Below the pieces are notes generated by a model. It was not told the origin of the DNA. It did no database searches and saw only the letters and a list, made by a program, of their open reading frames with translations. A program made the position numbers and the translations under genes. From IMG/VR virus record IMGVR_UViG_3300016662_000010: DNA of 64,000 nt; one strand, given 5' to 3'. Positions 2,963 to 56,086 of this stretch are shown here, in pieces. Source of the DNA: an uncultured virus (IMG/VR IMGVR_UViG_3300016662_000010). Lineage: Duplodnaviria; Heunggongvirae; Uroviricota; Caudoviricetes. Each line of letters opens with the position of its first letter. Positions within the stretch are counted from its first letter, which is position 1.

Positions 2963-3024
2963 AGCACTCGGTTCCGTTCCCAGCATATATCGCGTGTCAA
3001 TAGGGCCACTGTTTCGGGCAGGGC

Positions 3025-3053
3025 TTGACAGCGGGAAACGGTGGGGCTATCGT
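3025..3053 (+). promoter_or_regulatory. Sigma70-type promoter upstream of the pentapeptide-repeat gene
   Basis: TTGACA-17 bp-TATCGT, 26 nt before ATG 3080. Confidence 0.65.
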
Positions 3054-3079
3054 CTGAGAGTTGTTTGCCCCACTGAGCT

Positions 3080-3853
3080 ATGGACTTGACTGATGTCTTA
3101 GAACAGCACCGTCTTTGGCTGGTAACGAGCGGGCGCGAGGGGCGCCGGGCCGATCTGAGCGGGGCCGACCTGCGCGGGGCCAACCTGCGCGGGGTCGACC
3201 TAAGCGGGGTCATCCTGCGCGGGGCCGACCTTCGCGCGGCCGATCTGATCGGTGCCAACCTGCGAGGAGCCAATCTGAGCGGTGCCGACCTGAGCGGTGC
3301 CGATCTGAGCGGTGCCGACCTGCGCGGTGCCAACCTGCGAGGAGCCAATCTGAGCGGCACCGGCCTAATCGGTGCCGACCTGATCGGTGCCAACCTGATC
3401 GGTGCCAACCTCAGCGATGCCGACCTGAGCGGGGCCAACCTGAGCGGTGCCAGCCTGCACAACGCCGACCTGAGCGGGGCCAACCTGAGCGGGGCCAACC
3501 CCAGCGATGCCGACCTGATCGGTGCCAACCTGATCGGTGCTATTGGCCTCACCATCGCCGCTGATGCCCCGCAACGGCTGCTGGCCGTAGCACGTGCCGC
3601 GCTGGCCACAGACTCAGCTCTGCAAATGGACGAATGGCACACATGCAAGACCACTCACTGCATTGCCGGTTGGGCGATCCATCAGGCTGGCGAGCCAGGC
3701 CGGCTGCTGGAGGAGACTCACGGCCCAGAGGTCGCCGGGCGGATGCTGCTCGGCCACGATGCGGCCATGCATTTCCACGACAGCAACGACGACGCCCGCG
3801 CCTGGCTGCAGTCGGTGCTGGACGCTGCTGAGGCGGGGGAGGTGGGGGCATGA
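3080..3853 (+). CDS. Pentapeptide-repeat protein with C-terminal Cys/His domain
   Basis: Tandem A(D/N)LxG repeats, then WHTCKTTHCIAGWA. Confidence 0.92.
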   Translation: MDLTDVLEQHRLWLVTSGREGRRADLSGADLRGANLRGVDLSGVILRGADLRAADLIGANLRGANLSGADLSGADLSGADLRGANLRGANLSGTGLIGADLIGANLIGANLSDADLSGANLSGASLHNADLSGANLSGANPSDADLIGANLIGAIGLTIAADAPQRLLAVARAALATDSALQMDEWHTCKTTHCIAGWAIHQAGEPGRLLEETHGPEVAGRMLLGHDAAMHFHDSNDDARAWLQSVLDAAEAGEVGA

Positions 3854-4590
3854 GCACTTCCACAGTCTTAAAAGCAGGCCAGGCGCCCCTCATGGTGGGG
3901 CAACGATGGAAAGACAAAACTGGCAAAATCGTAGAACTACTTGACTACAACTGTTCCACCAAATACTTTATTGGAAAACGAAACGGCCACTTAAATCACA
4001 TCTATGACTATCAAGGCCACGAAATGTTCGGCCTAGATGGCGAAATGGATCTTGTTGAGCTGATAGAAACTGGCCCGTTGTTTGAGGCTGGTCAACTATG
4101 GTTGAGGGCCGATGGGGCGCAACTCCGTTTGCGCAAGAGTCAAGACGGCTTACGTGCATATTTTGTGAATCCAGAAGACGATGAGGACGAACCTTTTGCT
4201 GCCTCTGTCGAATGGCATAGGCCAGGCCTATGCGTCAACTTGGTCAAACTTCTGCAGCCTAATAATTGCTGCTTGACTGCTCCATTGCTTAAGCCTCCAC
4301 TTGGCCTTCGTCCACGTTTCGTTGTGTTAGAAGAACGAATAAAAGAAATCAACAAAGCTATTGAAAGGTATAGGCAGGCTCAAAAGACCATTCCAGCGGA
4401 ATGGTACAACGAAAAAAGCTTAATCAATGACGAACTAGATCTCCTTTCTTTTAATCGTTGGTGGGATCTTGAAGGGAGTGGAATGGCTCCCGAGAAAGGC
4501 GAGGACCAAGAAGCGCATGTCCACCGCATTTCACGCATTGCTTGGAGTAATGGTTTCTTTAAGGCGCGATGCTATGAAGCTACTCTCTGA
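3850..4590 (+). CDS. Hypothetical protein with two GQxW...G modules
   Basis: ATGA overlap with upstream gene; VGQRWKDKTG and AGQLWLRADG. Confidence 0.65.
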   Translation: MSTSTVLKAGQAPLMVGQRWKDKTGKIVELLDYNCSTKYFIGKRNGHLNHIYDYQGHEMFGLDGEMDLVELIETGPLFEAGQLWLRADGAQLRLRKSQDGLRAYFVNPEDDEDEPFAASVEWHRPGLCVNLVKLLQPNNCCLTAPLLKPPLGLRPRFVVLEERIKEINKAIERYRQAQKTIPAEWYNEKSLINDELDLLSFNRWWDLEGSGMAPEKGEDQEAHVHRISRIAWSNGFFKARCYEATL

Positions 4591-4732
4591 TTGGACACGA
4601 TGTCAAGACCATTCTTGTCCATGGCATCAAAACTGCGCTCGCTGGCGACAACGAGCCGATGGAAATAGCCAAGCGGCCACCATGCGACACCCCTCCTCAA
4701 GCTCTTGTGACTATTTTGTCCCTCATGACTGA
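4574..4732 (+). CDS. Small Cys-rich protein
   Basis: MKLLSDWTRCQDHSCPWHQNCARW...CDYF, four Cys, overlaps both neighbours. Confidence 0.55.
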   Translation: MKLLSDWTRCQDHSCPWHQNCARWRQRADGNSQAATMRHPSSSSCDYFVPHD

Positions 4733-5237
4733 TTCCAAATCCACGATTCTGCCTAAGTTTGAAGTGGGCCAGACTTGGCGCACAAGAAAAGGCGACACTT
4801 GCGCAATTACGCAGATAGCCAACCATTGTGAGTATCCTATTGCGACTGATCTTTATGGCCCATCTTGGAAGGCCTGGTACGACTTAAATGGAAATAGCTG
4901 CTTTGGTAATGGCGACCATGAAGACGATCTGGTCTCCTTGGTGAAGCCTGTTATTGCCATTGACAAGCCCGAGAAAGAGCCGACTCCCGCCCCCATCATT
5001 ATGCCCAACTCCGCTGAATTTCTCCTCCCTCAGTCCATTGTTAATGGCGATACACCATTTTACGTAGTAGTGGCCATTGATCCCGACGATGGCGAAAAAC
5101 TTGTATGGGAAACACCGATGCCAGAAGGAGCAACTCTTGAGGCTGCACTTAAACAACGCCTTCGGTTAAATCCGCGCTATTCCGTGTCCTACATTGCCGA
5201 ATGCCGTATCATTCCTCTTCTAACACAACAATCATGA
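4725..5237 (+). CDS. Hypothetical protein (GQxW module)
   Basis: FEVGQTWRTRKG...DLV domain. Confidence 0.65.
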   Translation: MTDSKSTILPKFEVGQTWRTRKGDTCAITQIANHCEYPIATDLYGPSWKAWYDLNGNSCFGNGDHEDDLVSLVKPVIAIDKPEKEPTPAPIIMPNSAEFLLPQSIVNGDTPFYVVVAIDPDDGEKLVWETPMPEGATLEAALKQRLRLNPRYSVSYIAECRIIPLLTQQS

Positions 5238-5381
5238 TCTCTGCCAAAGCATTTGCTATTCGCAAACGCCAGTATCTCACTCAGCTTTTGTCCCTACCAC
5301 TTTCGTTGATTGAGCGTACAATCCTCCTGCAGCCTTTTCTAGCTGATTGCTGGAACTAGCTTTCTCTCCATTGCTTTCTTG

Positions 5382-5408
5382 AGCCGGGGTTTGATCCTCG
5401 GCTTTTTT
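5382..5408 (+). terminator. Rho-independent terminator
   Basis: AGCCGGGG/CCTCGGCT stem plus T-run, between convergent units. Confidence 0.7.
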
Positions 5409-5529
5409 GTTGCCAAAGCCGTTGTTGTAGATGATGGCCATACCTAGTCAAATGAGCAAGTTCTTTCCAATAATAAAGCCCCTGCAAAAGGGGCATTGGC
5501 TGAGCGGCAAAAGGCGCATTGCTTAGTCC

Positions 5530-7512
5530 TTAAAAGAAGTCATCATCTTCTGCCTCAGCATCGGCATTGCCCTCTTTAGTTGGATTCTCGATAACTGCCG
5601 AATAGTTCCAATCGTGATAAAGCCTATCCCTTTCGCCATTCGGACCAGTCTGCCAGGAGCTAGTGATCAGCCCTTGGCGTCGTGCCACTTCCAGCATCTT
5701 GCGAGTGCCACCAACGTCCCAAGAGCCAACAATGGCTGCCACTTGCCTGCAGGACAGCCTTTCGTTCCGCCTTGCTCCTAGTGCTGTCACAACTGCCTCT
5801 AGCTCGTCCAGGCTGCCTCCTAGCGGGCCTCCATAGCGCCAGCCATAGTTCATTGGCTCCCGAGTCAGGACGTGTTTGCCGCTTAGTCCCGCCCGACTCT
5901 TGAGCCATTCAAGCGTGAACTGGTTATTGTCATAACCGCCCTCCATTCGATTAAACTTAATCACTTCGCTCACGTTGTCTACAAAAGCACTACTGTCACG
6001 CAATCCTCCAGTCTTATTCAAGTGGTGAAGGATGACAATACTGCATTGATACTGATTGGCCAAATCTCGCAAACCATAAATAACATCACCACTAGAGCTT
6101 TTCGTTAAGTCAATGTTCATGCCAGACAGGCACGAAGTAAGGCTATCAATGACAACAAAACTAGGGCGATGCTTACGGATGAACTCCTCCAGTTGCTTAA
6201 TATGAGCAAAGCGCCAATTCTCCCAAAAGCTAATCATGCCAGGCTCTAGCCCAGCATCGGCATAACCAATAACGGCCAATTTCTCTGTAGTATCCACAAG
6301 TGGCTCATCACTCTGAATGATTAGCACTTTGCCTTTTGCGCATCGTCTATTGCTCCATGGCTTACCTAGGGCAATGGACAAAGCCCAGTTATAGAGCAAA
6401 CTGCTTTTCCCACATCCGCCTTGAGCCGCCAATAGCATCACTGTTCCTTGCGGCACAATGCCTGCAATGAGCCATTCCCTACATTGATCGCTATTGGCAA
6501 TGGTCAAAGCATCAATGGTTTCAATGGTTTCACGGCCATGCACTCGCCCCTTGGCTTCGTCTACGAGCTTATCAATGTTCTGCTGTGGCATTTTGATGCC
6601 TTTGCGTTCCAACCACGATGCAGTTTCGTAGTAAATGCGAGCATCATTGTTGCCAAATAGGCCAACAAAGTCTTCGATGGAGGAAATGATTTCGTCATAA
6701 CCTGGCTTGCCATCAGCGTTCTGATGGCGCCCTTTGGAAACAATGGCAGAAAGCAAATCGTCTTTTGTGGCACCTTCGCCTTGAATCCAATCGCCAATGT
6801 CATAGCCATTCTTGCTGGGAAGATTATCCCATTCCCAAGAATCACCATCAGCATAAAGCCATTGTGCGCCAGGATTATCAGCCTCAACTTCCTTCATGAA
6901 GGCCACTCCAGGCTCATCACGATCAGGGCAAAGGACTAGGCGATAATCACGAAAGATGGTGGAATAATCACCATTGCTGCGATATTGTTTGCTGCCGCCA
7001 AGAAAGCTAATGGCTGGTAGGCCAATGTTCCATATTGCATCAGCTTTTAGCTCTCCTTCGACAATGAAAATTGGAAGGCCGTTTTCGTTGCTAGCTTTTA
7101 TGGCTTCGTGATAACGATATGGCAGGATTGTGGCCTTAGCCTCCTGCAGTTGGAGCTTTGCCGATGGAGAATTGGTGTCAATGGTGGGGAAATCTTGCCA
7201 GATGCGCTTACTGTCACTTTCACCATCGTCCTTTCTATTGACGACAACAATGGTTTCACCCTGCTCGTTTTGGTAATGGAATTGATGAAATGCCTCTTGT
7301 CGTCTAGGCTTTTCCCATCGTTCCATTGGGGCTAGAGTATTGCGGATTTCAGCGCGATGCTTGGGGGATGGGTCCTGAAAACAAGTGTAAGCACCAGTGG
7401 TTTTGTTGATGGACAAGTTGTTGCCTTGGCAGGCAGGGCAGATGAACTTACCGCTTTCCTTGGCTGGAACCAATGAGTCTAAGTAGTCCAGGATTGAGAA
7501 AGACATGGCCAT
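5530..7512 (-). CDS. DNA primase-helicase (Zn finger + Toprim + RecA-like AAA_25 ATPase)
   Basis: CPAC zinc motif, IVEGELKAD and DRD Toprim motifs, Walker A AQGGCGKS, Walker B VVIDS, ILHHLNK. Confidence 0.9.
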   Translation of the reverse strand: MAMSFSILDYLDSLVPAKESGKFICPACQGNNLSINKTTGAYTCFQDPSPKHRAEIRNTLAPMERWEKPRRQEAFHQFHYQNEQGETIVVVNRKDDGESDSKRIWQDFPTIDTNSPSAKLQLQEAKATILPYRYHEAIKASNENGLPIFIVEGELKADAIWNIGLPAISFLGGSKQYRSNGDYSTIFRDYRLVLCPDRDEPGVAFMKEVEADNPGAQWLYADGDSWEWDNLPSKNGYDIGDWIQGEGATKDDLLSAIVSKGRHQNADGKPGYDEIISSIEDFVGLFGNNDARIYYETASWLERKGIKMPQQNIDKLVDEAKGRVHGRETIETIDALTIANSDQCREWLIAGIVPQGTVMLLAAQGGCGKSSLLYNWALSIALGKPWSNRRCAKGKVLIIQSDEPLVDTTEKLAVIGYADAGLEPGMISFWENWRFAHIKQLEEFIRKHRPSFVVIDSLTSCLSGMNIDLTKSSSGDVIYGLRDLANQYQCSIVILHHLNKTGGLRDSSAFVDNVSEVIKFNRMEGGYDNNQFTLEWLKSRAGLSGKHVLTREPMNYGWRYGGPLGGSLDELEAVVTALGARRNERLSCRQVAAIVGSWDVGGTRKMLEVARRQGLITSSWQTGPNGERDRLYHDWNYSAVIENPTKEGNADAEAEDDDFF

Positions 7513-7654: not shown

Positions 7655-7837
7655 ATGCTGTACGACCAGCCCAAACGCAAAATCCACTTTGCGCTCACGC
7701 CCACGGCCCTAAGTCGTCTTAAGGAATTATCAGCTAACGCTGAGCTAAGCCTTAGTGAAACCTTAGAGCGGCTGTTACGCTCCACTCCTGCCCATGAAGG
7801 GCTTGTCCTTTGCAATGAAAACTGGAACAATGACTGA
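7655..7837 (+). CDS. Ribbon-helix-helix (CopG-like) regulator
   Basis: KRKIHFALT strand followed by two helices (SLSETLERLLR). Confidence 0.65.
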   Translation: MLYDQPKRKIHFALTPTALSRLKELSANAELSLSETLERLLRSTPAHEGLVLCNENWNND

Positions 7838-8684
7838 AGAACAAAATGCCGCTTTGGCTGCTTTGACCGATCGAACACTGGGACTGTTTGCCCCTTTGGA
7901 AATTAGTTACGAGAAGTTCAAGGCCGCCTATGAGCTTCCCATTGGGGAGCATGTTGAAAAGAACTACAAAGGCTTGTCCTACTTGTCGTGGCCTTTTGCA
8001 TTCCGCTACTTCTACGAGCATTTCCCTGGCCTTTACGTCCAGTTTGAGGAAAGCAGGAATGGCTGGCCCGTGTTTGGTGAGCCTGGCGCCTATATTCTCC
8101 GGCCTTTTATCACCGATGGAGTGAGGCGGACAACGGCGCTTGTGTTTCCAATCATGGATAACAAGCACAATTCAATTCAAGCTCTAGATGCTAGGGCCAT
8201 TAGTGACAACTGCCAGCGAGCTACGGTCAAAACCATTGCCACTTTCACTGGCCTAGGACTGAAACTCTATTCCGGCGAGGACATTCCAAGGGACGATTCA
8301 GCGTCGTCTGCCTCTGCTCCTGCCTCTCCTCCATCGTCTTCCCCTTCTGCGCCAGAGCAGTCGCCTGATGCCGCTTTTGACGGGCGGGCAGCAGGCTTGG
8401 CCTTGGCTAATGCTGGAGTGTTTGGCCTAGATCGGCAGGCAGTGATCACTTTGGCCAAGAATGCCCTAGAAACCATGGGCCTCAAGGCTTCTGCGGACCT
8501 CAAGTCTCCTCAGCAGTTTGGCCTTTTGTGTCAAACCATGATGGCGGCTTGGACTAAAGACAATGGCATCAAGATTACCAAGCCTGCAATGGCCAAAGAA
8601 ATGGAAGCCTTGCAAGTGGAAGCAGAGAAAGGCGCAGAACAAGCTATTGCATTCATTGCAAAGTTTGTTGAGGAAAAAAAGTAA
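7830..8684 (+). CDS. sak3: Sak3/DUF1071-like single-strand annealing protein
   Basis: GLSYLSWPFA, PIMDNKHNSI, QRATVK, GLGLKLYSGEDIP. Confidence 0.85.
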   Translation: MTEEQNAALAALTDRTLGLFAPLEISYEKFKAAYELPIGEHVEKNYKGLSYLSWPFAFRYFYEHFPGLYVQFEESRNGWPVFGEPGAYILRPFITDGVRRTTALVFPIMDNKHNSIQALDARAISDNCQRATVKTIATFTGLGLKLYSGEDIPRDDSASSASAPASPPSSSPSAPEQSPDAAFDGRAAGLALANAGVFGLDRQAVITLAKNALETMGLKASADLKSPQQFGLLCQTMMAAWTKDNGIKITKPAMAKEMEALQVEAEKGAEQAIAFIAKFVEEKK

Positions 8685-8719
8685 TAGTGGCAGCGGCCCG
8701 CCTTGCGCGGGCCTTTGCC
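8675..8719 (+). other. Candidate -1 frameshift signal (A AAA AAG + downstream hairpin)
   Basis: In-phase heptamer 8675-8681 immediately before TAA; hairpin 8689-8719 after a 7-nt spacer. Confidence 0.6.
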
Positions 8720-8745
8720 GGAACCATCATCATCCCCGAGGAACA

Positions 8746-9237
8746 ATGTTAATTGCCAACTGCAAAGCGCCACGAATAGATCCGTCTTGGATGCCTTTTC
8801 AAAACAAAGAAGAAATTGAAGTTGGTCCATTACCCGGCCAATTTACAGTAAATGACACACAAGCGTTCGCTCTCGGATGCTATCAGGCATTTCCGCACAT
8901 TGATGACGCTTATCCAGACGTCCATTTTGTAATACTCGTGACCCAAAGCTATCGCCACGTACTTTCAGATGCTTCTATGTATCCACGACAATACATCCTT
9001 AAAAAGGGAGATTTAGTCATTATCAATCCCATGGAATTACATTGGCTATATCAAGCTCCATTGTCACCATTACATTTTGGACGCCGAGGATATTGGCTCG
9101 GTATTCAATGGGAAGTACCCAAAGAAAACAGTGACGACAACTTAAAACGCTTTGTGTCTGCAGTAGTGGCACAATTTCACGGCAAATGGAAAGGTCGATA
9201 TGATGCCGGTAACTATGCCCACCTACTTCCCACCTGA
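8746..9237 (+). CDS. Putative cupin/double-stranded beta-helix protein (paralog 1)
   Basis: PHIDD...GDLVIINPMELHWL, an HxD...H pattern. Confidence 0.5.
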   Translation: MLIANCKAPRIDPSWMPFQNKEEIEVGPLPGQFTVNDTQAFALGCYQAFPHIDDAYPDVHFVILVTQSYRHVLSDASMYPRQYILKKGDLVIINPMELHWLYQAPLSPLHFGRRGYWLGIQWEVPKENSDDNLKRFVSAVVAQFHGKWKGRYDAGNYAHLLPT

Positions 9238-9250
9238 TCCCCACGGAACA

Positions 9251-9727
9251 ATGCTAATTGCTCATTGCAAGCCTCCCATAATTCCTAAACATCAATACCC
9301 TCCACGCAGAACTGAAGTTAGCTTTGGCTATGTTCAGCGTAGGCTGAAAATCAATTCCGTTATACCAGACCTTATAGGCTGTTACAGTTGCCCACCGCAC
9401 GATGATTCGCATATAGGTAGCCAATACTTTGTCATCATGACGATTGAATGCGGCCAGCATTTTGTTTCTGATGTGCGCCATCTGCCGAACGAGGAATCTC
9501 TTAAGCCAGGCTCATTGTTCATCATTGATTCCATGGTGACTCACTGGCTATTGCATGATGATTACAATGTGTCCAAGCTTCCCAAGCGAGAATACTGGGT
9601 TGGCCTAAGCTGGAGCGTGCAAAAACGTCACCTAAAGTCCATGGTAAGCAACATTGTTAAAACTTTTGATGGAAAATGGGCGACAAGATCTTGCGCCGGT
9701 CGTTATGCCCGCCTGATTCCCTCCTAA
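9251..9727 (+). CDS. Putative cupin/double-stranded beta-helix protein (paralog 2)
   Basis: PHDD...GSLFIIDSMVTHWL; colinear with paralog 1. Confidence 0.5.
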   Translation: MLIAHCKPPIIPKHQYPPRRTEVSFGYVQRRLKINSVIPDLIGCYSCPPHDDSHIGSQYFVIMTIECGQHFVSDVRHLPNEESLKPGSLFIIDSMVTHWLLHDDYNVSKLPKREYWVGLSWSVQKRHLKSMVSNIVKTFDGKWATRSCAGRYARLIPS

Positions 9728-10529: not shown

Positions 10530-10775
10530 ATGGCCCGTCCTCCGTTTAGTGGCGCAATCGACCTGACGCCCGAACTGCTGAATGCGCTCAAAGCCAAAGG
10601 CCCGAACGAGCGTGGTAACTACAGCCTTGACTTTGCGTGCTGGGAAGCGCGTGAACGTCGTTCTGACAGGTCTCCCACTCACACTGGCAGCGTCAAGGTG
10701 AAGGGTGATCGTGATGGCACTCAAGGCAAAGGCTATGCCTCCATGTGGGTGAATGACGAAAGCGACGCTTTTTGA
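10530..10775 (+). CDS. Small putative ssDNA-binding protein
   Basis: Beta-rich, SPTHTGSV motif, acidic/aromatic tail DESDAF; follows SSAP and exonuclease. Confidence 0.5.
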   Translation: MARPPFSGAIDLTPELLNALKAKGPNERGNYSLDFACWEARERRSDRSPTHTGSVKVKGDRDGTQGKGYASMWVNDESDAF

Positions 10776-39759: not shown

Positions 39760-40175
39760 TATCGTGCCAGTTCTGCTCCAATTAGTCCCACGATAGCAGG
39801 AGGAAGCCTATGGTTTTTCAGCGCCCATTGCAGGGCTTCTTTGGTTTCACTACTGATGCCATTTGGTTTATCTTGCTCAAACGGCAAGAAGTCATCTACT
39901 TTTGCTCTTGCAGTCTTTCCGCCTAGGGCTCCAACAACTGTCACTGCTAATTTAGCCGTGCTCATACTATGAGCGTTGATTAGCCTTTGCTGTTCTGTAC
40001 TGGCTTGTTCCAGCATGATTTGCAACAAGCGGATTGGCACCTTGCCAAACCTTTCCGCATGAAACATGGGATCAGCAATGGCAAGCGCCTGAATGCGGCA
40101 ATACAAAGCAGCCCAATCCGTAGACTGGGCTAACGTGGCTTCACAGTGCTTTTCTAGCCGCTCTAGCCTTGTTCC
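39759..40175 (-). CDS. Tail assembly chaperone T-part, reached by -1 frameshift
   Basis: Frame is open from the slippery site (KGTRLERLEKHCEATLAQSTDWAALYCRIQ...) with no ATG near its beginning. Confidence 0.75.
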   Translation of the reverse strand, partial: GTRLERLEKHCEATLAQSTDWAALYCRIQALAIADPMFHAERFGKVPIRLLQIMLEQASTEQQRLINAHSMSTAKLAVTVVGALGGKTARAKVDDFLPFEQDKPNGISSETKEALQWALKNHRLPPAIVGLIGAELAR

Positions 40176-40684
40176 TTTGGGGCTTCGTCCTCTTCTGCCT
40201 CGGCCTCACTGGCTCCCTCTTCCTTGGCCATGAATGCCTCCACAGCATCAAGCATGGTCTTGGTGAGCTTGCCAGTGTCCTCCCGGCTCCAGTCGGTCGT
40301 GGAGGTCCATTCCGCGCCCTTTTTGACTTCTCCCCGGTTCTGAAAGAACTTTGTCACCAGTTCTTCAAATTGCTCTTGGGGCGATGGGAGGAGGGCAAAC
40401 AATGCCGCTGCCTCTTCTGTGAAATCTCCCAACACTTCCTGCCTTTCAGGGCCATCAGCTTGGAGGATGTCGAAAGCATCATCTTCACTGATTCCTTGCT
40501 TTGCTGCAATGCGTCGTGCCAAGCGAATGGCCTTCATTGAAAACTCAGCCCGCTTTTTGTTTTGCGCATCCCGCAGCCACAGTTCTTCAGTAAGCCAACT
40601 GCCATAACTGCGAAGCCGCAAGGCTCCAGCAATCGAAGCATACTTTGGACTGCCGACCAAGAAAAACTCGCTGTATTGGCTCAT
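40163..40684 (-). CDS. Tail assembly chaperone G
   Basis: Between tail tube and tape measure; acidic end EEDEAPKEQG containing C CCA AAG. Confidence 0.8.
   Translation of the reverse strand: MSQYSEFFLVGSPKYASIAGALRLRSYGSWLTEELWLRDAQNKKRAEFSMKAIRLARRIAAKQGISEDDAFDILQADGPERQEVLGDFTEEAAALFALLPSPQEQFEELVTKFFQNRGEVKKGAEWTSTTDWSREDTGKLTKTMLDAVEAFMAKEEGASEAEAEEDEAPKEQG
40175..40181 (-). other. -1 frameshift slippery heptamer CCCAAAG (G/GT)
   Basis: GCC CCA AAG in phase; -1 frame joins ORF 39759-40106. Confidence 0.8.
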
Positions 40685-40689
40685 GGAAA

Positions 40690-40911
40690 TCAATTAAGCA
40701 GCGCAAGTCTAGCGTTCAGCACACGACATGGCATGGGATTGGAAATGGCACGATGGGGGAGACCAATAATTAGCCTTTCGCCTTTCCATTGCACAATCAC
40801 CTGCTCAGGGCAATTACTGACAAAACATGCCAATCCCGCAACTAATCGCTCCTCTTCTCTTGTCACATTAAAGAGCCATACGTTGCCGCAGTCGCTGGTC
40901 AGCATTTTCAT
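40690..40911 (-). CDS. Hypothetical protein
   Basis: Fills the gap in the tail operon. Confidence 0.55.
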   Translation of the reverse strand: MKMLTSDCGNVWLFNVTREEERLVAGLACFVSNCPEQVIVQWKGERLIIGLPHRAISNPMPCRVLNARLALLN

Positions 40912-53775: not shown

Positions 53776-54285
53776 ATGGCCCTGCAAGTCATTTTGACCG
53801 AAGACGAAAGCCTTTCTGCCATAGAGGAGGCCCATCGTCGCCAAAAGACGAATGAAGCAAAAGGGCTATGGGGAAGGAATGGTGGGGCTAGAACTGGCGG
53901 CAAGGCCATTGAAATGCACGTTATGGGCGCCATGGGCGAAATGGCGGTGGCAAAGCACTTGGGCCTTAAAGGCTTTCTTTATCAAGAGGCCGAAGCCAAG
54001 CGTGGTTCTGTTGACTTGCCGCCAGACATTGACGTTAAAACTCGCAAAGGCCATGATCGTGACTTAATCGTGCAACTTTCTGACAGGCGAGATAAGCGTT
54101 ATATTCTGGTTACTTGGATGAATCCCGCGCAGTTGTTCATTCATGGATGGATTAGTGGCGAAAAAGCTATGCAGCCACAATACATTCTTGATCCAGCGCG
54201 AGGGCGCAAAGCCTACTTTGTGCCACAATCTGTCCTTATGCCAATGACACATTTTGACAATGCTCAAGTGCTCACAGTTTGCTGA
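53776..54285 (+). CDS. Hypothetical protein, PD-(D/E)XK-like
   Basis: GAMGEMAVAK...D...IDVKT...YILV. Confidence 0.55.
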   Translation: MALQVILTEDESLSAIEEAHRRQKTNEAKGLWGRNGGARTGGKAIEMHVMGAMGEMAVAKHLGLKGFLYQEAEAKRGSVDLPPDIDVKTRKGHDRDLIVQLSDRRDKRYILVTWMNPAQLFIHGWISGEKAMQPQYILDPARGRKAYFVPQSVLMPMTHFDNAQVLTVC

Positions 54286-56086
54286 ATACGCCTTAGGCCT
54301 TACTTTATGGGATAAGCAGAAAGAAATTGTTGATGAATACTTCAATGGCACCAAAACGCATGGTGTTTGGGCGCTTGGCCGCCGTTGTGTCACTGGAGAC
54401 ACGCTTATTACTACAAGTCAAGGAAACATAAAAATTAAAGAGTTAGCAGATCGCGGTGAGACGCTAACGCTAGAAGACGGAAGCAAATGGCAAACGTGTT
54501 CTGCACAAGTGGCCCAACTGGATGGCAGTTATGCTTCCGCAGAGCTTGTGCACGTTGGGGGAATAGAGCCAACCCGAAAAATTACACTAGCCAATGGCCT
54601 CTTTATTGCCGGCACTCTGGAACATCCCATCATGGTCATGGGAAGCAATGGAGCAGAATGGAAGGAACTACAACATATCAAGACTGGCGATTTAGTTTTT
54701 ACTGTTTCCATGAAAAGGAGCAATGGGCGAGAACTGGTGTCGGTAATTGGCAATGACGAGAATGGGCTGCATCAAGTATTTGATCTACACGTTCCTAGTA
54801 CAAATGCTTTTATTGGCAATGGCATCTGTAATCACAATAGCGGTAAAACTCTGCTTGCCGCAGTAGCGGCCCTCTATGTCTGCTTTGTCCTAGAAGAACG
54901 GTATAGGCGCAAAGTAAGAAAGAAAGAGAAGTGGTACATTGTCACTATTGCCAATGATCAATCCCAAGCAAAGTTGGCCCTAAATAACATCCGTCAACTG
55001 CTCATTGACAGTCAGTTTGCCAAAGAAATCACCAGGGAAACTGCCACTGAAATTGAAATCAGCAACGGCTGTGTATTCCAGGCAATTCCAGCCTCGGCCC
55101 GTGCTTCACGAGGTAAGGCCGTGGTCATGATCATCATGGATGAACTTGCGTTCAGCATTGAAGGCGATGCCAACCGTGGCGCAAAGGCCATCTACACCGC
55201 TCTGTCCCCCTCCATTGCCCAGTTTGGTGACGATGGGCGAATCCTAGAGCTTTCATCGCCATGGCTCACGGACGGCCTGTTCTATGAACACTACTGCGAA
55301 GCTCAAAGTGGTGAATACAAGTTCATGCAAGCCATCAACATTCCAACATGGGAAATCAATCCCAACCTGCCGTGGGGCTGTAGTTTCTTAGAGGCAGAGC
55401 TTAAGCGCGATCCCGAGAAGTTCTGGGTGGAATATGGCGCCCAATTCTCCAAGAATCTATCAGCCTTGCTAGCGCCAGAAGTGGTGGAGGCAGCCGTAGA
55501 CAAAAAGCGTGGCATCCTGTTGCCACAACGCGATTTCCAGAGCATGTACTACCTGGCCCTAGACCCCGCCAAAGGTGGTGTTGGCCGCGATAATTATACG
55601 GCAGCCATTGTCCACTACGAAGGTGAAACGCTAGTCGTGGACAAGTTCCATTCGTTTGATGCTGATTTTGAGATCAATGGTAAAAAGGAAGTCAATATCA
55701 AAGGAGTGGAGCAATGGATTGTGGAACACCATAAAGCCTATGGTTTCAAGGAAATTGTGCTTGACCAGTTCAATAGTGCTTCCACCATCCAAACGCTTGC
55801 CGAAAGTTTCCCAATTAGCGAACTGACGTGGAGTGTTTCCACTAAGATGAAGGCGTTTAGCAAGATGCGACAGTTGTTCAATGCTGGCCTGATCAGTCTC
55901 TATCCACATGAAATTGCAATCAAACAGATCAAAAACCTTAGCGTGGTGTATCGACAATCAGGACAATGGACAGTGACTGGTGGTAAAGAAGCAAATGTTG
56001 ACGACTATCCCTTTGCATTGGCTGCTGCCATCATGGTGGCATCAGAAGGTGATGATATTGACTGGATCAATTCTTTAGTTCGCTAA
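54254..56086 (+). CDS. terL: Terminase large subunit, intein-containing
   Basis: Spliced Walker A GRR|SGKT, Walker B IIMDE, LSSP, nuclease LALDPA, DQF, DD.P.ALA. Confidence 0.92.
   Translation: MTMLKCSQFAEYALGLTLWDKQKEIVDEYFNGTKTHGVWALGRRCVTGDTLITTSQGNIKIKELADRGETLTLEDGSKWQTCSAQVAQLDGSYASAELVHVGGIEPTRKITLANGLFIAGTLEHPIMVMGSNGAEWKELQHIKTGDLVFTVSMKRSNGRELVSVIGNDENGLHQVFDLHVPSTNAFIGNGICNHNSGKTLLAAVAALYVCFVLEERYRRKVRKKEKWYIVTIANDQSQAKLALNNIRQLLIDSQFAKEITRETATEIEISNGCVFQAIPASARASRGKAVVMIIMDELAFSIEGDANRGAKAIYTALSPSIAQFGDDGRILELSSPWLTDGLFYEHYCEAQSGEYKFMQAINIPTWEINPNLPWGCSFLEAELKRDPEKFWVEYGAQFSKNLSALLAPEVVEAAVDKKRGILLPQRDFQSMYYLALDPAKGGVGRDNYTAAIVHYEGETLVVDKFHSFDADFEINGKKEVNIKGVEQWIVEHHKAYGFKEIVLDQFNSASTIQTLAESFPISELTWSVSTKMKAFSKMRQLFNAGLISLYPHEIAIKQIKNLSVVYRQSGQWTVTGGKEANVDDYPFALAAAIMVASEGDDIDWINSLVR
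54386..54838 (+). mobile_element. Mini-intein (151 aa, no homing endonuclease)
   Basis: Starts CVTGDT, block B TLEHP, ends VFDLHV...NAFIGNGICNHN followed by Ser. Confidence 0.93.

Follow-up and report, generated by a model that had tools for sequence, protein, structure and literature searches.

The single-strand annealing protein gene (sak) of an uncultured virus (IMG/VR IMGVR_UViG_3300016662_000010) ends in a slippery heptamer, followed by two stop codons, a GC hairpin and an open -1 reading frame. This raises the question whether ribosomes change frame here, and what the added peptide would be for. The stretch of DNA analysed, 64,000 nucleotides long and hereafter called the window, is a tailed-phage segment with tape measure, capsid, portal, lysin, Thy1 and dCTP deaminase genes. 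The features in and around sak were:

5530..7512, - strand: primase/helicase (phrog_239, AAA_25), divergent from sak
7830..8684, + strand: sak, a Sak3/DUF1071 single-strand annealing protein of 284 aa from ATG 7830, with an in-frame upstream ATG at 7794
8675..8681, + strand: slippery heptamer A AAA AAG, in the final codons of sak
8682..8687, + strand: 0-frame stops TAA TAG, which double as spacer
8688..8721, + strand: predicted stimulatory stem-loop with a 7-bp inner stem, a 5-nt loop and a 6-bp outer stem, overlapping the tail codons
8681..8752, + strand: -1 frame tail of 23 codons plus TAA, giving a predicted extended protein of 307 aa
8684..8731, + strand: tau-like tail core, with Leu8 at 8702-8704, Phe12 at 8714-8716, the invariant Gly14 at 8720-8722 and hydrophobic residues 16-17
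8746..9237, + strand: next gene, no family match, its ATG within the last tail codons
9676..10485, + strand: PD-(D/E)XK exonuclease (PF12705, phrog_298), the likely annealase partner
10530..10775, + strand: small protein whose acidic C-terminus ends in Phe, no family match, possibly SSB-like by its position

Positions 8670-8684 of the window read GAG GAA AAA AAG TAA. The heptamer and the downstream GC hairpin that the initial annotation had described at the sak end are both present (8675-8681 and 8688-8721), and so are its 23-residue -1 frame tail, the stop at 8752 and the overlap with the start of the next gene: the tail stop codon occupies 8750-8752, and the next ATG (8746) lies inside the last tail codons. 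In the window fold the hairpin reached -24.6 kcal/mol, with a z-score of -3.1 on 40 nt, a value reached by 1 of 200 shuffles, and -2.5 on 49 nt, reached by 5 of 200. The spacer measured 6 nt to the first predicted pair and 7 nt to GGCA. Contigs from three of four sequencing runs (X3, X5 and X7, with X3 belonging to the same study as the possible source samples) crossed the site without gaps, so the site is not an assembly error; in run X8 no contig spanning the slip site was found. Distant relatives in the sequencing runs matched the window DNA almost only over the hairpin, with loose ends at 8688-8690 and 8718-8727. Taken alone, A AAA AAG is no rarity: the window has 6 copies, with 16 expected. 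What goes beyond chance is the comparative evidence.

For this comparison 247 loci were taken from four scans and from Synechococcus phage S-CBS4, giving 248 with the window. Seventeen were dropped (10 ended too soon and 7 had no C-terminal domain), and the remaining 231 gave 131 distinct gene ends, which share kinship and form about 25 clusters at 70% identity. All 131 ends, window included, had an X XXY YYZ heptamer in the last two sak codons, either A AAA AAG (63) or G GGA AAG (68). Such a heptamer occurred at only 7 of the 781 other ORF ends of the same loci, and internal Gly-Lys pairs of Sak were written GGA AAG in 22 of 233 cases. The two types interchanged six times on the Sak tree, at least two of the changes being forced by strong branches (quick tree, 64 of 127 rows). 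The initial annotation had called the signal dnaX-style. The A AAA AAG and the hairpin in the window agree with this; since more than half of the family uses G GGA AAG, the signal is not strictly of that type, and the upstream Shine-Dalgarno stimulator of E. coli dnaX is not evident in the window (none 5-20 nt upstream; some 4-mer in 76 of the 131 ends, as a raw count). G GGA AAG is the slip site of lambda gpG/gpGT. For E. coli, PMC5009743 lists A AAA AAG and G GGA AAG as highly shift-prone.

The initial annotation had proposed checking the -1 frame after sak homologs for a conserved peptide, and in all 131 ends this frame was open, for 20-43 codons, with coding-type variation. Within the core blocks no stop was found in the -1 frame (0 of 126), compared with 57 in the 0 frame and 74 in the +1 frame. 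Synonymous to non-synonymous codon changes numbered 67/80 in the -1 frame, versus 31/120 and 17/145 in the other two, and third-position entropy was 1.42 versus 0.77 and 0.68. A 7-codon insertion in the tail of one locus (L054) preserved the frame. Another locus had an apparent sequencing frameshift inside sak near an N run (L071:1260-1320), and its true end kept G GGA AAG and a typical tail. Slip site and tail were absent from eight distant PF06378 homologs that do not have the helical C-terminal domain described below. Judged from these sequence comparisons, a functional programmed -1 frameshift at the sak end is very probable.

The same -1 frame could have arisen with no ribosomal shift, as a separate small gene, a terminator or processing hairpin, or a product of transcriptional slippage. 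Gene callers do list fragments of the tail as small ORFs, and the window has a run of seven A. Yet a start codon (ATG, GTG or TTG) in the open -1 frame ahead of tail codon 4 was present in only 58 of 131 ends (ATG in 20), with no conserved start, and the 68 ends with G GGA AAG have just three A. At least five T followed the stem in only 10 of 131 ends, and a terminator scan of the window did not list the hairpin on the + strand; the hairpin thus does not look like the mere terminator that the initial annotation had considered as an alternative. Neither a separate gene or hairpin nor slippage accounts for the heptamer in every copy, and we regard an origin without ribosomal shifting as very unlikely.

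If ribosomes do shift, the -1 frame could still serve mainly to carry them over the hairpin to the next gene, with the peptide being secondary. An overlap between the tail stop and the next start codon exists in 80 of 131 ends, and the tail of the window encloses the next ATG. Such coupling requires an open frame but not a conserved residue pattern; the other 51 ends have no overlap, and the sequence downstream varies among relatives. This purpose appears extremely improbable. Three other routes to a longer product were also considered. In the window, a +1/-2 shift could lead into the next gene through an open frame, but at least 20 +1 codons were found in only 25 of 131 ends, and stop readthrough would fit 48 of 131 ends only; both were rejected. 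No in-frame fusion of Sak and tail was found among the best 120 of 7919 homologs, all of which ended in G-K-x, G-K or K-K(-x).

The hairpin was more stable than synonymous recodings of the same peptide (median z -3.0), with 108 of 131 ends below -1.64. In the covariation analysis 97.1% of cells were paired and 8 of 13 pairs had two-sided changes; these figures lean toward the window's structure, as they come from 53 rows out of the 67 of 115 blocks that fit its hairpin register, and related sequences can beat the shuffles. The remaining 48 blocks fell outside this register, and other lineages had a shifted, longer stem. In some lineages the hairpin was weak (L028, L037, L054, L112, L122), and in some the stem was more distant. 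The stem is built of Ala-rich codons. Rfam gave nothing credible. By these measures the hairpin is selected over and above peptide coding.

The sak product belongs to PF06378 (SSAP_Sak, E 5.6e-17 in the window) and also matched phrog_8492; the PF06378 family is called Sak3/DUF1071 (PMC8093625). An AlphaFold2 model showed an annealing domain, a flexible linker (about residues 150-180) and a helical C-terminal domain (181-284). The annealing domain, with its Rad52-like fold, matched the Sak of phage 80alpha (PDB 8qe9 and 8pq8). The helical domain (window 8370-8681) was confidently folded and, among the loci examined, was found only alongside the slip site and tail; it had no family or PDB match, and the ESM Atlas gave nothing above 0.80. 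Lactococcal p2 Sak3 and staphylococcal 80alpha Sak thus share family and fold with the Sak studied here, whereas this phage clade differs by its unmatched helical C-terminal domain and its frameshift tail. In S. aureus, Sak is needed for phage replication (PMC5499656).

Several other features of the window were noted. Between sak and the exonuclease, two similar-looking genes of ~160 aa (8746-9237 and 9251-9727, + strand) had no Pfam or PHROG match; as the sequence past the tail varies among relatives, the region 8746-9727 looks like an insertion hotspot. The primase/helicase (5530-5560, - strand) and the SSB-like protein (10750-10775, + strand) both end in acidic residues and Phe, ends that presumably resemble the C-terminal tip of SSB; several filamentous cyanobacterial DnaX proteins also end in acidic residues plus Phe. 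A C CCA AAG stands at 40175-40181 (- strand), near the end of ORF 40163-40693, and the -1 frame after it is open for about 140 codons. From its tail-assembly chaperone position upstream of the tape measure gene, this site is probably a lambda G/GT-type frameshift. A 610-aa ORF by the portal gene (54254-56086, + strand) lies in the terminase position by synteny with S-CBS4 and has an intein-like domain under the Pfam cut-off. A pentapeptide-repeat-like protein, recognised by its pattern, is encoded at 3080-3853 (+ strand).

What the tail resembles was searched for with profiles and models. Its pattern is D-x-A-A-A-x-[LF]-x-x-x-F-x-G-x-hydrophobic-hydrophobic, followed by acidic residues. Gly14 is invariant, and position 16, which lies outside the stem, is hydrophobic in 126 of 126 tails. 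Cyanobacterial DnaX C-termini were taken from 60 loci, 56 of them complete, and in Cyanobiaceae they carry the motif D-x-x-A-x-x-L-A-x-F-F-N-G-x-V. Tail and DnaX end gave a gap-free alignment (hhalign probability 72, E 3.4e-5). A profile made solely of phage tails put the DnaX motif at the top of 3,000-6,800 17-mers in 28 of 29 Cyanobiaceae dnaX loci. Over all sampled Cyanobacteriota the motif came first in 37 of 56 loci, 13 of the failures being one divergent group (L258-L270). In a 1.2-Mb sample of one genome (G047), the DnaX motif of that genome (18.1 bits) topped all 1,660,618 six-frame 17-mers. Since G047 itself contributes one of the two DnaX motifs with the highest scores, the median over the DnaX motifs (13.2) was compared as well; it was reached by 1 of the 1,660,618 17-mers, by 0 of 2416 ORF ends and by 0 of 2000 column shuffles.

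The reverse test was weak. A DnaX profile ranked the tail 1st to 8th per phage record (in the window 3rd of 68,052, with 5.8 bits), and a DnaX HMM recovered the tail in only 1 of 14 phage records. With the full tail HMM, DnaX was not found at E 0.001 among 1.84 billion proteins, nor at E 10 in one genome (G002). The 22 matches at E <=0.001 were the tail itself, as eight short ORFs, and 14 long proteins in which the match recurred many times (two were inspected). For 33 tail peptides, Pfam gave no family and NCBIfam scattered weak matches only, and PDB sequence searches with the tail profile and the DnaX-end profile returned only chance matches.

In E. coli, the unstructured C-terminal end of tau is the alpha-binding site and folds on DnaE, and Leu627, Phe631, Ala633 and Leu635 are implicated in this binding (PMC1888804). 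Tail positions 8, 12, 14 and 16 have the same spacing. From the tau motif L-x-x-F-F-x-[AG]-x-hydrophobic, the tail keeps the L, the second F, the G and the hydrophobic position. The likeness to the cyanobacterial DnaX C-terminus, pointed out in the initial annotation, is real and specific by forward profile ranks and hhalign, except that the first Phe of the FF pair is Ala in 84 of 126 tails. The phage tail further differs from the tau peptide in being carried on a phage protein via a frameshift. AAA+ clamp-loader domains and domain V were absent from the tailed Sak, and only the terminal motif is in common. In cyanobacterial DnaX the motif was modelled as a separate helix about 75 residues past the folded domain, after a long linker, and is thus a detachable module. 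The tail may therefore act like the end of tau, but it is not a DnaX.

The resemblance to tau might also be a coincidence, with a real frameshift adding a tail that binds something else, for example the phage exonuclease or helicase, or Sak, and with an amphipathic helix that arose by convergence and was partly shaped by the GC hairpin. The Ala-rich codons of the stem, the loss of the FF pair and the weak reverse profile test would all fit. Against it, Gly14 is invariant and position 16, outside the stem, is always hydrophobic, the peptide survives a changed hairpin register (the 48 of 115 blocks off the window's register), and DnaX outscores every sampled ORF end. We consider another partner unlikely.

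To model a complex, we paired the tail from a related locus (L008, alignment of 71 rows) with the 219 C-terminal residues of DnaE from a stand-in Cyanobiaceae host (G065, 45 rows). The model scored 0.61 (runs 0.61, 0.58 and 0.67), compared with 0.00 for the best of three controls; of the solved complexes, 116 of 157 reach the score mark, as do 2 of 215 mismatched pairs, and for complexes with their own alignments these counts are only rough. The runs agreed in at least 84% of contacts, with a partner pLDDT of at least 70. The best-defined contacts joined tail residues 8, 12 and 14-17 to DnaE fragment residues 138-149 and 174-188. The contacted residues lie in the C-terminal domain and include the conserved positions 138 and 185-188. 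This domain is the tau-binding part of DnaE (PMC3919608).

The complex modelling that the initial annotation had suggested passes against its controls, with the tail of a relative and a stand-in host, and the pass may reflect the predictor's memory of solved tau-alpha complexes. DnaE relatives have solved structures, some of which include tau. A tau-alpha complex has also been published (cited in PMC3919608), so that the pass establishes likeness to that solved interface; it supports binding by the peptide but falls short of proof. Taking model and tail pattern together, we consider it likely that the tail binds host DnaE.

Binding to DnaE could also serve to displace tau, slowing host replication or freeing Pol III. 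The likeness to tau and the DnaE model would apply equally to such a competitor, and even a low level of expression makes the C-terminal domain of E. coli tau lethal (PMC1888804). However, the 32-mer from E. coli tau on its own binds alpha at 3.8 uM, compared with about 0.2 nM for tau with domain V, i.e., about 10,000-fold more weakly (PMC1888804), and a minority frameshift product on an annealase would presumably be a poor route to an inhibitor. A competitor role is therefore quite unlikely. As the peptide by itself is a weak binder, a tether that holds the polymerase at annealed 3' ends is the most likely function.

The closest cultured relative of the window is Synechococcus phage S-CBS4, with 47.5% Sak identity. 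It shares with the window the gene order ATPase, sak, exonuclease, dcd and thy1, and it has an A AAA AAG, a hairpin and a tail of 32 residues, all of them unannotated. The part of PMC6157547 that mentions S-CBS4 has no mention of a frameshift. The two closest genome matches of the window (L155 and L156) sit in MAGs labelled Verrucomicrobia; both are probably misbinned phage contigs, one of them being a 76.8-kb contig.

These phages carry primase/helicase, exonuclease and nucleotide-metabolism genes. A family A polymerase was found in none of 14 related records (nine of them at least 90% complete), and family B and C polymerases and the DnaE C-terminal domain in none of five. No polymerase is annotated in S-CBS4, and none was found among the larger ORFs of the window, in agreement with the initial annotation, which had seen no phage polymerase.

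In the mechanism that we propose, ribosomes at the last sak codons would pause at the hairpin. A fraction would slip back one base on the heptamer, bypass the stop and add the tail, as the conservation suggests. Short and long annealase would then both be made and, going by the Rad52/Sak family, would probably be mixed within one ring or filament. The tail would copy the C-terminal peptide of host DnaX (tau), i.e., a helix, then F-x-G, then a short strand, as its likeness indicates, and in the model it would dock on the C-terminal domain of host DnaE, which is tau's own site. Pol III would most likely be held near freshly annealed 3' ends, a purpose that would couple annealing to DNA synthesis. 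The frameshift would fix the fraction of tailed Sak subunits, as it does for lambda gpG/gpGT.

Overall, we somewhat favour the reading that, through a programmed -1 frameshift, a minority of annealase subunits receives a tau-mimic peptide that docks host Pol III, which supports the replisome-docking peptide inferred in the initial annotation. That recruitment of host Pol III is the purpose of the tail we hold to be slightly better supported than not. The chances are about even that S-CBS4-like cyanophages have neither polymerase nor clamp loader and replace tau's tether by the annealase, with recoding setting the dose of subunits that carry DnaE to 3' ends.

The recoding device is known, and the new element would be its use on an annealase to append a mimic of the tau end. 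E. coli dnaX has the A AAA AAG and hairpin in common with the phage site. There, shifting truncates the protein and removes the alpha-binding end, whereas the sak shift would extend it, adding a tau-like end. The lambda gpG/gpGT pair is alike in that a -1 shift close to the gene's 3' end yields a minority extended product, which in lambda gains a C-terminal part for binding a second partner (PMC5009743). The sak case differs in the gene, which encodes an annealase, in the 20-43-residue added peptide and in the apparent target, a host enzyme. Among the literature searched, mostly open-access abstracts, we found neither a frameshift in a Sak/SSAP gene nor a phage tau mimic, and the lists of genome-wide frameshift screens could hold the site.

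What the finding offers is a handle of 20 residues, together with a predicted binding site and, in S-CBS4 and Synechococcus CB0101, a cultured phage and host. It would be a case of phage frameshifting beyond the virion-assembly genes and of a virus imitating the tau-alpha interface, and well over a hundred environmental phage sequences would gain a protein isoform that they now lack. Polymerase-docking tails could also improve recombineering annealases in cyanobacteria. To our knowledge, the hand-over from annealase to polymerase and the takeover of Pol III by polymerase-less phages are open questions. If true, our reading would mean a direct coupling of recombination to replication through mimicry of the tau-alpha interface, dosed by recoding, and it suggests how phages with no polymerase of their own borrow that of the host.
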